Source: a virus
Lineage: Duplodnaviria; Heunggongvirae; Uroviricota; Caudoviricetes
Virus record (IMG/VR): IMGVR_UViG_2526164632_000026
Direction: 5' to 3' (one strand)
DNA length: 25,029 nucleotides
Positions 19,401 through 25,029 of the stretch are shown piece by piece (position 1 is the stretch's first letter; the number at the start of each line of letters is the position of its first letter). Position numbers: made by a program.

Positions 19401-22400
19401 CCGGCCCTAAGACATCAATCATCTGTTCTCCAATGACTAGTCTAAAAACTAGTATTAAGACTATCACTTATTTAAGTGATACTGGTTGTCTGGAGATTCA
19501 GGGGGCCAGTCTAATTCTCTATTTGATCATCCCATGCATGATATTTTTCTGCCCCAATAATCTCATGAGCTTTATTTTGTACTTTCTGACCGCCTGCGTC
19601 GGGGCCAACAACACCTATGTCAGTACCTAATCGATAGCGAATCCAGTCATTCGCAAGGGAGTTCCATTCAATACCAGTGTGAGTGTATGCACTAAAAGCT
19701 CTGTCTCCAGTTACAGCTGTGTTGTGTCTTTTATTACTGCCTGATGGAGAGTAAATATCTTGCGCAATATGGAGAGATAATTGGCTCGAGTCTGAGATAT
19801 CGTGGCTATATCCCAGAAATAAGCCTTGTGAGTAATCATCTCTGTTTTCATGTTTATTGCCATAAATATCATTAAGTATTGGTTGAAACTTCCCTGCATC
19901 ATCATTTGCTAATGATAATGCAAGGCTGTTCGCGATAGCTGAACACGTGGTAAATGACAGAGCAATAAAGACGCCAGCGATGACACTTTTTTTCATATGT
20001 TATTGTCTTCCTTTTTTTGAATGGTGCGCGTATTTTACATACATGAGTTTGTAATACAAGGTGCGTAATCAATATGATGTTTTATAATTGCGTGAGACAA
20101 TTGATTTATTTGTTTTTTATTGCGGTTTTTATTATCTTTTAATGTAACGGTGTTTTTATTAAGTGTGTTTGCGTGGTGTTTTATGTTTTTTATAATTTTT
20201 ATTTTATTAAATTTAAATGCATTAGTAATGGCTATTCTATATAGCAATATAAGAACTGTTACAAAAAAAGGGGGGGCAATTACAGGTAGTTATGGATGAT
20301 GAGTGAAACAGATATTGGAGAACCGGGGAATGAATGATGTCTGAGTCTTATATATCAGAACTCCTTCGCTGTCGCTGGGGGCTCCTGTGCTTATGTCGTT
20401 TCCCCGATTCGGTTTTGAACGATTACCGAATGTTGAAGAATTATGCCAAAATATAGAAAGGATTTACTGCATGAATACCCAATATTTACAGTATGTTCGT
20501 GAGCAACTTATGGCAGCTACTGCTGACTTGAACGGAGCAACGAAAGGCCAGCTCGAAGCCTGGCAGGAGCATGCACAATTTGATACTGGTACATACAAAC
20601 GAAAGAAGCCGCGCATTCTGGATGTGGTAACTGGCAAGATGATTACGCTGGATAATACGCCGACTTCCGGTAAGCAGTCGTACGCAAAAGGTTCATCCAT
20701 TGCTTTGGTCAGCCCGGTTGAATTCTCAACCTCTTCATGGCGCCGCGCGGTTTTGTCTCTCGATGAACATCAGAAAGCATGGTTGCTTTGGTGTTACAGC
20801 GAAAGCGTTCGATGGGGGCATCAGGTCACCATAACGCAATGGGCATGGAGCGAGTTTAAAGATTTGTTAAGTAACAGAAAAATTGCAGGTAAGACACTGG
20901 ATCGCCTGAAGACGTTAATCTGGCTGGCTGCACAGGATGTGAAGAGCGAACTTGCAGGGCGTGAGGCCTATGAATACCAGACACTGGCATCATTGGTGGG
21001 AGTGACAACAAAAAACTGGTCCGAGACATTTACTGAACGCTGGGTTGCAATGAAGCACATTTTTCTACAGCTTGATAGTGATGCTTTATTGCTTGTGACG
21101 AGAACACGTTCAAAACAAAAGGCAGCATTTTTACAGCAAAATATTGCAAAACTGGATTAAAAGCCATATACTTCATGCAAATTTGGTATGTTGTAAAAAA
21201 TGTATAAACCCGCTGCCGAGTGGGTTTTTTTATGCCCTGAGTTGTACTTGTACGGTAAACATGCTGGCTGCTATGTAATAGAGTTTTTTTAGCCTGTAAC
21301 CTCTTGACGGCATTGAATTGCTTTTGTTATGAGTTGTAAGCCAATGTTATCATCTTGTATTGGGGTGGTTATGAAGGATGGTGCGCTGCTCAGGAGTTCT
21401 TCACTTTTTATTGCCTACATGGGATGCCTTGGATGGGGGAGTGCTTATTTCTATGGATGGGGTACTTCTTTTTACTACGGCTTCCCATGGTGGATTGTAG
21501 GTGCAGGTGTTGATGATGTTGCCAGAAGTTTATTTTTTGCAGTTATCGTCATTGCTATATTTCTTATCGGTTGGGGTATTGGTGTTGTATTCTTTTTCGC
21601 AGTGAAAAGAAAACATTCTATGCAAGAGCTAAATGTATTTCGCCTTTATTTTGCTGTGGAATTATTGTTTGTGCCGGCAATTATTGAGTTTTCTATATTG
21701 AGACAGAAGATTCAGGTACCTCTTTTGCTACTGTCAGCAGCGATTGCGCTGGCGGTTACAATTTCGATAAGATCTTATGGGCGATTTTTATCGGTATCAT
21801 GCTTCTATGATAAGCCATTTATAAAAAACATTTTTTTGAGATTGTGATGATTGCTTTTGTGGCATATTTTTGGCTTTTTTCATTTCTGACAGGATATTAC
21901 AAACCACAGTTTAAGAAAGAATATGAAATGATTAATTATAATGATGGTTGGTATTATGTTCTTGCTCGTTATGATAATTGTCTGGTTTTGTCTACTTCTT
22001 TCAATGCAGGTAGTAAAAGGTTTGTCATTTATCAATCAGCACAAGATAAGAATCTTCAGGTTGATATTGTAAGGACCAGAATTTAATTGGCTGCATAAAT
22101 AATATTTTAAGTTGCAAGTTGGCTATTCGTAGGAATAGAACCTTAGGCATGCTGAATGCGTTTTCTGAACATTGTTTTATAAACTGTGTCTGCTTGCTGT
22201 TGTGATCCTGCTTTTAGTGATGGTGATGATGGATTTCACCAGCAGGATAATGTTGGTACTGACTGATGGCGCTCTGGTCTGCGGCATTGTGGTATTGCTG
22301 TGGCCGATGATGAAAGAACAGAATGAATAATTCTTGACTTTTTTGTTTACTGTTTATTAAAAAATCAACCGCATGGTGAATCCTCCTTGGAGGGGCTAAA

Positions 22401-25029
22401 TGATCGAGTTTTAAGGGCACGTAGCGAGTTCTGTTTGATCATTGCAGAACTTAGCGGGAGGCGCCATGCGTACATCACTAGTGTTATTCCTTTTATCATT
22501 TTCCTTGTGAGTTCTGGCTGCGCATTGCGCAGCCTTTTTTTTATGACCTGCCACTGGCAGATGGTCATCCTGTGATTTGATTCCGCTTCCGGCTTTTTAA
22601 CTCTGTTCCTCTACACGGGAGAAATTCGATGTCGATTAAACATTACGATGTTGTCAGGGCGGCGTCGCCGTCAGACCTTGCGGAAAAGCTGACACACAAA
22701 CTGAAAGAGGGCTGGCAGCCATACGGCGGACCGGTTGCCATTACGCCGTACACACTGATGCAGGCGGTGGCTATTGAAGGAGAGCCACAGGTCGGCCCTT
22801 CATCTGAGCCGGATTGGTACTACGTCATCGTACTGGCCGGGCAGTCCAATGCCATGGCTTACGGTGAAGGGCTTCCGCTGCCGGATTCATACGATGCTCC
22901 GGATCCGCGCATTAAACAGCTGGCGCGCCGCAGTACAGTGACGCCGGGCGGGGCTGCCTGCAGATATAACGATATTATTCCGGCTGACCACTGTCTGCAT
23001 GATGTGCAGGATATGAGTACGCTGAATCATCCGAGGGCTGACCTGAGCAAAGGGCAGTACGGCTGTGTCGGTCAGGGTTTACATATTGCCAAAAAACTGC
23101 TCCCGTATATCCCGAATAACGCGGGGATCCTGCTGGTACCATGCTGTCGTGGTGGTTCGGCATTTACCCAGGGCGCGGAGGGGACATTCAGCGAGTCCAC
23201 GGGGGCCAGTCAGGATTCGGCACGCTGGGGGGTGGGCAAGCCGTTATATCAGGATCTGATTTCCCGCACAAAAGCGGCATTGCAGAAAAATCCCAAAAAC
23301 GTTCTGCTGGCCGTCTGCTGGATGCAGGGTGAGTTTGACATGAGCGCCGCCACCCACGCACAGCAACCTGCGCTGTTTACAGCCATGCTGACACAGTTTC
23401 GTGCTGACCTCTCCGTGTTTAACGCGCAGTGCCATGGTGGCAGTGCTGCAGATGTGCCGTGGGTTTGTGGTGACACGACGTATTACTGGAAAAATACATA
23501 CGCTACCCAGTACGACACCGTGTACGGCGGGTATAAAAACAGGGAGAGTGAGGGCGTTTATTTTGTGCCCTTCATGACAGATGGTAACGGCGTCAATACC
23601 GCCACTAACGCGCCGGCAGAAGATCCGGATATTCCGGCATCAGGATATTACGGTGCGGCATCGAGAACGAATGGAAACCAGGTATCATCAAACCGCCCGA
23701 CACATTTCAGTTCATGGGCGCGCAGGAGCATTATTCCGGATCGTCTGGCAACCGCTATTCTGAACGCAGCCGGGCGCACCTCAGCCTTCATCAGTGGTAA
23801 GGCACCGGAAATCAAACCCTCGCCCGGCGGCAACACGCCATCGGGTCCGTCTGCAGATACGTCCGTTCGCACAATCTCCCTGCTGCCGGCAGCCGGAGAG
23901 GCTGCTGCGCAGGGCTGGAGCATTAAGGATGGCGGAATTCAGTTGTCAGATGGTGTATTTAAGATCACCAAGCAGAGCAATAAAACCTGGTCCCTGACGC
24001 ATCCGGTGGATGACGCAATTACCCTGCTGACACAGGGCGGCAGACTGACCTGTAAGTTCCGCCTGTCAGGCGCACTGACCAACAATCAGTTCGGGCTGGG
24101 GATTTATCTGTATACGGATGCTCCCGTTCCTGATGGTGTGGCGATGACGGGTACCGGTAATCCGTTCCTGATGTCGTACTTCACTCAGACCACTGACGGC
24201 AGAGTGAATCTGATGCATCACAGGAAAGCCGGAAACACGAAGCTGGGGGAGTTCGGCGATTACGGTAACGACTGGCAGACGCTGGAGCTGGTGTTCACCG
24301 CCGGCAGTGCCACGGTTACTCCGAAACTGAATGGAGTGGCTGGCCCGGCATTCCAGGTTATAAAAGACAGTCTGACACTGGGACTGAATGCGCTGACGCT
24401 GACGGATGTTACAAAAAATGCAGCGTATGGCGTTGAGATAGAAAGTCTGATGCTGGAGATAAATGCACCGGCAGCATAATAAAAAAGCCAGCGACTGACC
24501 TGAAAAAGAAGACGCTGGCTAAAAGGCCTTATATGTTTGTAGAGACTTATTTTTCACAGACAGCAATGATGCCTGTCAATATATTATCAATATGCGGATT
24601 GTTTCAGTTACAGATGCCTTATTAAGGAAAAAACAGCCAGCACTGACTTTCGGTGGAGAGGTGCTGGCTCAAAAGGATAGATGTACTTCACATGTTGCTT
24701 CTATATGGCAGTACATTTTCTGACAGACAGTGACGGATGTTGTCAAGATATTGTGTCATTTATAACCTGAATCAGGGGAGGCCGGAATGTTATCTGGCAT
24801 TTTTAGCAGAGCCTGAATGCCATAATCACGGCTCCCGGCGTTGGCCGTCAGTGGGTGACACTGGCGGCTTTTTTGTTTTTCTTTACTTTCATTTTCTGTC
24901 GGCGGTGACGGAGACATACATCAGATGGAAAAAATCACAACAGGTGTGTCATACACCACGTCAGCGGTGGGGACGGGATACTGGTTACTGCAGCTGCTGG
25001 ACAAAGTCTCTCCGTCCCAGTGGGTGGCA

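Follow-up and report, generated by a model that had tools for sequence, protein, structure and literature searches.

Assignment of a structured interval upstream of nanS-p in a lambdoid prophage to a DUF3927 gene and the STnc100-related small RNA PasD2

The 25,029-nt virus sequence IMGVR_UViG_2526164632_000026 (Caudoviricetes; hereafter the window, to which all unlabeled coordinates refer) carries, directly upstream of the sialate O-acetylesterase gene nanS-p, an interval (22090-22628) that an earlier note, made from sequence alone, had described as a structured, non-coding unit. The interval in all probability comprises two separate units, a DUF3927 small membrane-protein gene followed by a small RNA (sRNA) gene, situated in the "moron" region between the Q antiterminator and the lysis genes of a lambdoid prophage. 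The RNA, encoded on the plus strand at 22371-22542, is very probably PasD2, a known Hfq-bound regulatory sRNA of lambdoid prophages. Both units are already on record, PasD2 as a published and validated sRNA and the small open reading frame (ORF) as an annotated gene, and the finding is real but ordinary. An addition beyond the literature consulted is a predicted pseudoknot in the 5' domain of this RNA family, supported by covariation and kept in PasD2. All five features listed by the earlier note, a hydrophobic 36-codon ORF, a promoter-like TTGACT, a CCTCC/GGAGG inverted repeat, a 14-codon ORF and a terminator, were found on direct reading of the sequence.

Identity of the RNA at 22371-22542 with PasD2

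PasD2 was detected in enteropathogenic Escherichia coli (EPEC) E2348/69 by Hfq RIL-seq and Northern blot as a 172-nt RNA at NC_011601.1 741157-741328 (+) (Pearl Mizrahi et al., 2021, PMC8550237, Table S6). In an alignment, this RNA maps base for base onto 22371-22542, and the identity extends into the flanks, with 22330-22560 matching the PasD2 locus of E2348/69 at 100%. The Northern probe, CATGCGCAGCCAGAACTCACAAGG, which by the authors' statement has one mismatch to PasD2 (PMC8550237), matches 22503-22526 with one mismatch. The earlier note had predicted a short plus-strand RNA ending at about 22542, and PasD2, with its mapped 3' end at 22542 by identity to E2348/69, is such an RNA; of the small-RNA, leader-peptide and type I toxin options that the note had raised, the first is borne out and the other two are not.

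The 3' end coincides with the end of a Rho-independent terminator, which was picked up by a terminator scan and is also annotated in the phage 434 record. Its 9-bp arms are 100% complementary, with a hairpin energy of -14.7 kcal/mol, and the 9-bp stem with eight T residues at 22516-22542 that had been noted earlier is present and is the terminator of the sRNA. The prophage setting agrees as well. The pasD genes are reported to lie near Q and LpxR, with PasD2 upstream of a sialate esterase gene and PasA on the other side of that gene (Zhu, Shabalina and Storz, 2026, preprint 10.64898/2026.05.13.724894), and the window has Q and two lpxR fragments within 10 kb and, downstream, nanS-p (Table 1). 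The window and the E2348/69 PasD2 locus share these neighbors (LpxR, Q, DUF3927, sialate esterase and PasA), the seed and the terminator, and differ in an lpxR gene split by an insertion sequence (IS) and a 1-nt deletion in the upstream membrane-protein gene, both in the window.

In E2348/69, the terminated RNA is abundant (RNA-seq base mean ~11,000, activating condition), "Hfq-dependent stability" is reported for the Pas sRNAs, and pasD1 and pasD2 show no significant RNA-seq change in the activating-condition contrast (PMC8550237). PasD2 forms RIL-seq chimeras with many mRNAs of both the core and the accessory genome, with partners that include aceE, tir, uspA, cesF, bfpB, gltI, coaE and the lpxR homolog E2348C_0684, and its target motif, CUCACA(G/A)G, is complementary to the seed UGUGAG (PMC8550237, Fig. 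S5, Table S7). In the window, the terminator follows closely on this seed, which is unpaired in the centroid and partly paired in the minimum-free-energy fold. PasD2 would thus be expected to act in trans via seed pairing, with one seed-complementary site in the neighboring lpxR mRNA, while the terminator would by analogy double as the 3' Hfq-binding module, with Hfq on its U-tail and on the preceding U-rich stretch.

The lpxR site is CTCACAAGG at 19824-19832 (-), in the 5' lpxR fragment. It is a perfect 9-nt complement of the seed region 22503-22511 and corresponds to the site listed for the PasD2/E2348C_0684 RIL-seq interaction (lpxR site CUCACAAGG). PasD2 may target its own prophage neighbor, inactivated in this window.

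Several points weigh against this assignment or narrow it. The experimental data on PasD2 all come from E2348/69, and its accumulation as a ~172-nt Hfq-bound RNA is carried to the window by sequence identity; in that strain, moreover, the Northern blot shown does not separate PasD1 from PasD2 (PMC8550237). The function of PasD2 has not been elucidated, according to the preprint 10.64898/2026.05.13.724894. The -10 element of its putative promoter is weak, and Table S6 of PMC8550237 brackets PasD2 with the upstream gene, a notation for sRNAs derived from untranslated regions (UTRs), such that its 5' end may come from processing rather than from the promoter proposed here. Finally, RIBOseq coverage of 0-3.2 for eleven STnc100 copies in EDL933 makes some translation of family members possible.

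Relation of PasD2 to the STnc100 family

PasD1 and PasD2 have been described as structural relatives of STnc100 (10.64898/2026.05.13.724894), and PasD2 is a degenerate relative of the Rfam STnc100 family (RF02076). Rfam at gathering thresholds finds nothing in the interval, but a permissive search gives a full-length, sub-threshold match at 22341-22545 (41.4 bits against a gathering cut-off of 47, E=3.6e-7). Canonical STnc100 members score 55-200 bits on the same model, and PasD1, which differs from PasD2 by a 1-nt insertion and four substitutions, has no match at threshold. PasD lies just under the STnc100 threshold, and standard pipelines therefore leave it unannotated and lay spurious ORFs over it.

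A scan of IMG/VR for TGGTGAATCCNCCN{2,8}GGNGG yielded 120 contig stretches and, after removal of a few chance matches, 109 unique elements; alignment A2 comprises 48 representative 5' domains of STnc100/PasD. STnc100 (EcOnc27/sRNA103, EcOnc13), a gammaproteobacterial prophage sRNA, has in common with PasD2 the promoter geometry, helices P1, P2, P3 and P4, the pseudoknot, a 3' tail in which a seed is followed by a terminator, and a place after Q and ahead of the esterase and lysis genes. EcOnc13 and EcOnc27, family members of enterohemorrhagic E. coli, are Hfq-crosslinked and Northern-positive (Tree et al., 2014, PMC4104026), but their 3' tail and seed are unlike those of PasD2. EcOnc13 was considered as a candidate for the same RNA and rejected, its probe sequence being absent from the window's PasD2; it is a relative only.

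AgvB and AsxR (PMC4104026) are likewise Hfq-bound sRNAs of lambdoid prophages in pathogenic E. coli, and their genes also lie in the moron region, downstream of pR'. Unlike PasD2, they are 51-60 nt long, of unrelated sequence and sponges of core sRNAs; the convergent short sRNAs at the PasD2 locus are PasA/PasC, not PasD, and neither gathering-threshold nor permissive Rfam searches give an AgvB or AsxR match in the window.

Elsewhere in IMG/VR, STnc100-family elements often form tandem arrays of two to four copies (contigs L009:2265-3380, L014:342-1038 and L117:1363-1843). Each arrayed copy has its own promoter and terminator, and the L009 and L014 arrays adjoin phage tRNA genes. One STnc100-family copy adjoins stx2, and the region in question has lately been associated with clinical outcome.

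A conserved 5' domain with a predicted pseudoknot

The sequence 22371-22543 folds at -58 kcal/mol (z = -2.73), a stability reached by one of 200 shuffles. The flanks are ordinary (z = -0.18 for 22090-22340 and -0.29 for 22543-22640), which restricts the structured part to 22371-22542. Directly 3' of the PasD2 terminator, and also after PasD1, there is an imperfect hairpin (22543-22568, AUGACCUGCCA...UGGCAGAUGGUCAU); the surrounding 98 nt are those with z = -0.29.

In our model the 5' domain would comprise a closing helix (P1), two hairpins (P2 and P4), a short helix (P3) and a pseudoknot, with the RNA ending at the 9-bp/U8 terminator. The CCTCC/GGAGG inverted repeat seen earlier (CCTCC 22382-22386, GGAGG 22389-22393) is hairpin P2. 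RNAalifold and pair counting over the 48 representatives support five helices: helix cells are paired in 96.5% of cases, compared with 41-46% when the partners are slid, and 130 cells are changed on both sides, compared with 39 +/- 9 in shuffles. Covariation across relatives, proposed in the earlier note as a check, is evident as compensatory changes at each of the six P4 pairs, at a single pair of P3 and at two of P1; at P1 columns 3/144, for example, 23 of the 48 representatives have AU and 22 have GC. Alignment A2 shows next to no sequence variation in inner P1, the AAU junction, P2 and P5.

In nearly every element, the P4 loop is complementary to the strand that immediately follows the 5' half of P3, and the two arms match through many different sequences (AUCAGC/GCUGGU, CCAGUC/GACUGG, UGAUACC/GGUAUCA and UAUCAGUAC/GUACUGAUA). 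Complementarity within elements averages 6.56, against 4.45 +/- 0.16 when the loops are permuted, and none of 2000 permutations reaches 6.56. This pairing is unmarked in the Rfam consensus line given with the permissive match and lies beyond the reach of the RNAalifold analysis used in the preprint 10.64898/2026.05.13.724894. These data point to a covariation-supported pseudoknot in the 5' domain of the family.

PasD2 keeps P1, P2, P3, P4 and the pseudoknot but is the exception to P5, whose pairs are 98.8% kept. Where the canonical sequence at this site is ACCGGGAGGCACCCGGCACCAUGC, PasD2 has AGCGGGAGGCGCCAUGC; the canonical hairpin (CCGGG-AGGCA-CCCGG) is unable to form, and GCGGGAGGCGCC is followed directly by AUGC, such that GGGAGGC abuts the P1 3' strand. 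Loss of P5 by deletion of ~7 nt is the simplest reading, an interpretation that rests on keeping P1 paired; against it, a MAFFT alignment does not place the gap at the PasD2 3' end in that way. The P2 loop of PasD2 is also 3 nt shorter, and through the loss of P5 together with a C-to-U change in P2, CCUCCU (22382-22387) is fully complementary to GGGAGG (22456-22461). The two can pair in place of P2, and the minimum-free-energy fold uses that pairing. PasD2 would accordingly be a naturally occurring variant lacking P5, with GGGAGG left available to CCUCCU and the RNA able to take up another conformer.

The helices follow a cloverleaf-like order: a closing stem, a hairpin, a variable arm, a hairpin, and a hairpin abutting the closing stem. 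This order, the free but compensating changes in P3, P4 and the pseudoknot across roughly 100 diverged elements, and the almost invariant inner P1, AAU junction, P2 and P5 together suggest a specific partner or a role in processing or stability. We tentatively raise the possibility that the STnc100/PasD 5' domain is more than a passive scaffold for a variable seed, with RNA polymerase, a ribonuclease, some protein or a tertiary fold behind the pattern; if so, a further activity would have gone unrecognized in a prophage RNA family of very high abundance. The pseudoknot, the invariant P2/P5 blocks and the loss of P5 in PasD offer handles on why lambdoid and Stx prophages hold many copies of this RNA.

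Putative promoter and 5' end

The promoter-like TTGACT of the earlier note is present, one base to the right of the position first given (22334-22339), and is likely the -35 element of PasD2 within a plausible promoter. A simple promoter scan does not list the site, the -10 of which (TAAAAA/TTAAAA) is without a final T, and its support is therefore confined to positional conservation. Of the 109 unique family elements, 87 have a sigma-70-like pair (at least 8 of 12 matches) at one fixed position relative to the RNA core, compared with ~16% of shuffled controls; the -35 contains TTG in 86 of the 109, and the commonest -10 hexamers are TAAAAA and TAAAAG. PasD2 would be transcribed from its own sigma-70 promoter (TTGACT, 17-18 nt, TAAAAA), with G22371 as the start.

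A 3'UTR origin would instead place the start upstream, in the membrane-protein or DUF3927 genes or at pR', with an endonucleolytic cut at ~22371. Such an origin matches the UTR-type drawing of PasD2 in Table S6 of PMC8550237, the 40 nt, with no terminator, between the DUF3927 stop and the RNA 5' end, and a -10 box poor enough to be overlooked by the scan. Against it, the -35/-10 pair is kept at a fixed distance in most family elements, including those in tandem arrays and those without a preceding DUF3927 gene, and the published 5' end falls 7 nt past TAAAAA. We consider a processed 5' end unlikely, though worth keeping in view; the evidence favors an own sigma-70 promoter and with it an independent transcription unit.

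The 14-codon ORF and other reading frames over the sRNA

The 14-codon ORF was described correctly as far as its elements go: GGGAGG at 22456-22461 is followed four bases on by an ATG at 22466, and the frame ends at 22510. It is not, however, a conserved translation unit. The ATG lies within the P1 3' strand, where its U (column 144) pairs with column 3, and since it covaries as a helix partner it is missing in 43 of the 109 elements. Where an ORF does follow GGGAGG, it has 2-48 codons and encodes an unrelated peptide, and many such ORFs run through the terminator. In PasD1, the 1-nt insertion falls inside the frame and extends it from 14 to 36 codons. The missing ATGs, the unrelated peptides and the PasD1 frameshift argue against the leader peptide or small protein that the earlier note had envisaged.

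Two conflicting annotations lie over the sRNA. The phage 434 record has a 62-amino-acid "putative membrane protein" with a ribosome-binding site (RBS) at 22387-22575 (+), and RefSeq has a frameshifted pseudogene at 22411-22652 (-). Each is probably an artefact, arising where an sRNA gene scores too low for the Rfam threshold.

A dual-function gene, in which the 14-amino-acid peptide or the 62-amino-acid ORF is a real product, would make sense of the near-ideal Shine-Dalgarno (SD) sequence and ATG of the shorter frame, of the RBS annotated for the longer one in phage 434, and of ribosome footprints on some EDL933 STnc100 copies (up to 3.2). Yet the 62-amino-acid ORF has no family match in Pfam, PHROGs or NCBIfam, and the 14-amino-acid peptide, too short for a scan by itself and entered as a tandem duplicate, has none in PHROGs. 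Both frames are shifted by the PasD1 insertion; the longer one starts at a TTG inside P2 and passes through the terminator. The opposite-strand pseudogene of RefSeq adds to these an inconsistency that is typical of non-coding DNA, and family-wide conservation is absent among the 109 elements. A dual function is thus highly improbable. We judge the "RBS + ATG" to be structural elements inherited from the STnc100 scaffold, and the 14-codon and 62-amino-acid ORFs to be by-products. As a more general caution, RNA structure can, as a by-product, give rise to a perfect-looking SD, ATG and short ORF beside a terminator.

nanS-p and transcription beyond the terminator

The earlier note had suggested that the unit might control nanS-p. 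A nanS-p-like gene starts 100-600 nt downstream in 37 of 116 family elements, and at the PasD1 locus of E2348/69 a holin gene follows directly; both facts speak against dedicated control of nanS-p.

In a cis-acting leader or attenuator, a ribosome at the stop of the 14-codon ORF would cover the hairpin's 5' arm, with read-through into nanS-p as the result. The geometry in PasD2 is suggestive, with the stop codon (22508-22510) 5 nt from the stem start at 22516 and a strong GGGAGG 4 nt before the ATG, but it is not conserved: among nanS-p-linked elements, the position of the ORF end ranges from 74 nt ahead of the T-run to 101 nt past it, and the peptides are unrelated and range from 2 to 48 amino acids. 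In PasD1 the ORF is frameshifted. Besides the 37 of 116 elements that precede a nanS-p-like gene, the idea can draw on an association of the start codon with that gene, an ATG following GGGAGG in 29 of 30 unique nanS-p-linked elements versus 34 of 75 unlinked ones. This association is confounded by phylogeny, the GCAUGGUG-type P1 belonging to the E. coli Stx-phage lineage. In the predicted fold the ATG and the SD are both base-paired, and the ATG position covaries as a helix partner. No antiterminator pairing with a terminator arm was seen among the inverted repeats examined. Nor does the abundance of the terminated RNA (PMC8550237; see above) fit an attenuator. A ribosome-dependent attenuator is geometrically conceivable for PasD2 but unsupported by conservation, and we regard it as very unlikely.

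Read-through is moreover already explained by Q antitermination, which is established lambdoid biology. From this standard biology we infer that in lysogens the PasD2 terminator would stop transcription before nanS-p, in an insulating role, and that during lytic growth Q-modified polymerase starting from pR' just 3' of Q would read through, such that nanS-p would be expressed mainly then.

The DUF3927 gene

The hydrophobic 36-codon ORF is present at 22220-22330 and encodes MVMMDFTSRIMLVLTDGALVCGIVVLLWPMMKEQNE, but it is only the C-terminal two-thirds of an annotated gene, as the frame is open further 5' to a TTG at 22172 and gives 52 amino acids. The description of the interval as non-coding does not hold here, 22172-22330 being an annotated coding sequence both in RefSeq (WP_000499454.1) and, as TciB, in phage 434. 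The 52-amino-acid product matches Pfam PF13064 over residues 7-50 (53 bits, above the curated cut-off of 25; E=3.4e-14) and PHROG 1470, [quoted passage not shown] (E=2.5e-17); both profiles are matched over nearly its full length. Distant homologs on other phage contigs keep the N-terminal hydrophobic stretch that lies 5' of the ATG chosen earlier (KLRLAVAALLLFLVVMVDFTS, versus KLCLLAVVILLLVMVMMDFTS here), which identifies the 36-codon ORF as a known gene read without its N-terminal part. The gene starts here at a TTG without an obvious SD, whereas the distant homologs have GTG after GGAG. The product probably has two transmembrane segments.

An sRNA gene beside the gene for a small and very hydrophobic protein brings to mind a type I toxin-antitoxin locus, as the earlier note had proposed, with the DUF3927 peptide as membrane toxin and the adjacent sRNA as antitoxin. 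The PHROG 1470 label is in keeping with toxicity, although it is an annotation and not a test, and DUF3927 precedes STnc100-family elements at several other loci, although most family elements are without this neighbor (27 tblastn matches over ~125 loci). The hydrophobic ORF is part of an ordinary DUF3927 gene, and PasD2 lies downstream in tandem on the same strand rather than antisense to it. No antisense or extended complementary RNA partner is apparent: complementarity between PasD2 and the DUF3927 mRNA is no better than chance, reaching at best 8 perfect nt or 20 nt at 70%. The RIL-seq partners of PasD2 are trans mRNAs (PMC8550237). Taken together, these observations make a type I locus exceedingly improbable.

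Prophage setting and other features of the window

The window contains the late (moron) region of a lambdoid prophage, in the order IS-split lpxR, Q, terminator, membrane-protein gene, DUF3927, structured element, nanS-p and lysis genes (Table 1). The 539-bp interval 22090-22628 is 100% identical to phage 434 (OL657226.1 42917-43455) and is widespread in E. coli: of 5426 complete genomes, 696 contain it, at 3729 places in all and with a median of 6 copies each.

Table 1. Coordinates of PasD2, its structural elements and neighboring features in the window
Feature	Coordinates	Strand	Basis or remarks
PasD2 small RNA, 172 nt	22371-22542	+	100% identity to E2348/69 locus
-35-like TTGACT, putative pasD2 promoter	22334-22339	+	predicted from sequence, not mapped
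-10-like TAAAAA	22358-22363	+	18-nt spacer, 7 nt before RNA 5' end; alternative TTAAAA, 17-nt spacer
P1 5' strand GCAUGGUG	22371-22378	+	pairs with 22462-22469
P2 hairpin CCUC-CUUG-GAGG	22382-22393	+	100% paired in 48 family representatives
P3	22395-22397 with 22423-22425	+	
Pseudoknot 5' arm AAUGAUC	22399-22405	+	complementary to P4 loop 22437-22443
P4 hairpin	22426-22452	+	GAGUUCUG 22426-22433 with CAGAACUU 22445-22452; loop GAUCAUU 22437-22443
GGGAGG	22456-22461	+	in canonical STnc100, nearly invariant P5 stem/loop CCGGGAGGCACCCGG; PasD2 without P5 3' strand
P1 3' strand CGCCAUGC	22462-22469	+	contains ATG of 14-codon ORF, 22466-22468
14-codon ORF MRTSLVLFLLSFSL	22466-22510	+	judged a by-product of the RNA sequence
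Seed region CCUUGUGAG	22503-22511	+	published core UGUGAG at 22506-22511; stop codon of 14-codon ORF inside
Rho-independent terminator	22516-22542	+	arms 22516-22524 and 22526-22534, then U8 (22535-22542)
DUF3927 ("TciB-like") membrane-protein gene, 52 amino acids, TTG start	22172-22330	+	Pfam, PHROG, annotations
nanS-p (SASA-family sialate O-acetylesterase)	22629-24479	+	Pfam DUF1737, SASA and DUF6645; neighbor, outside the sRNA unit
Q antiterminator	20387-21160		
Terminator just 3' of Q	21206-21227		
lpxR fragment, residues 1-161	19996-19514	-	
lpxR fragment, residues 160-319	18183-17704	-	
IS3-family transposase ORFs inside lpxR	18194-19467		

A PasA sRNA homolog at 24629-24712 (-) converges on nanS-p from its 3' side. 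The fit of the published PasA probe to 24636-24660 (-) has zero mismatches, and the region is identical to that of E2348/69 apart from one T fewer in the terminator U-tract, with a TTGACA -35-like box upstream.

Directly after Q, a promoter-like TTGCAA, 17 nt, TATACT (21144-21172) is followed by the terminator listed in Table 1. This site pair (21144-21235) is the expected pR'/tR' and would yield a short terminated transcript like lambda 6S RNA. The Rfam lambda cIII thermoregulator element has a full-length match at 6973-7031 (-) (88.5 bits, E=1.2e-20), confirming a lambdoid early region in the window. A scan for tRNA and tmRNA genes found nothing.

On the minus strand, lpxR (lipid A deacylase; 17704-19996) is split by a 1.33-kb IS3-family insertion. 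Between Q and the DUF3927 gene, an A-run at 21823-21828 has six residues versus seven in E2348/69. The 247-amino-acid membrane-protein gene (WP_001302581.1 homolog, PHROG 1521) is frameshifted by this A6 run into ORFs 21329-21847 and 21844-22086; the frameshift could reflect a pseudogene, a slippage-prone homopolymer or a sequencing error.

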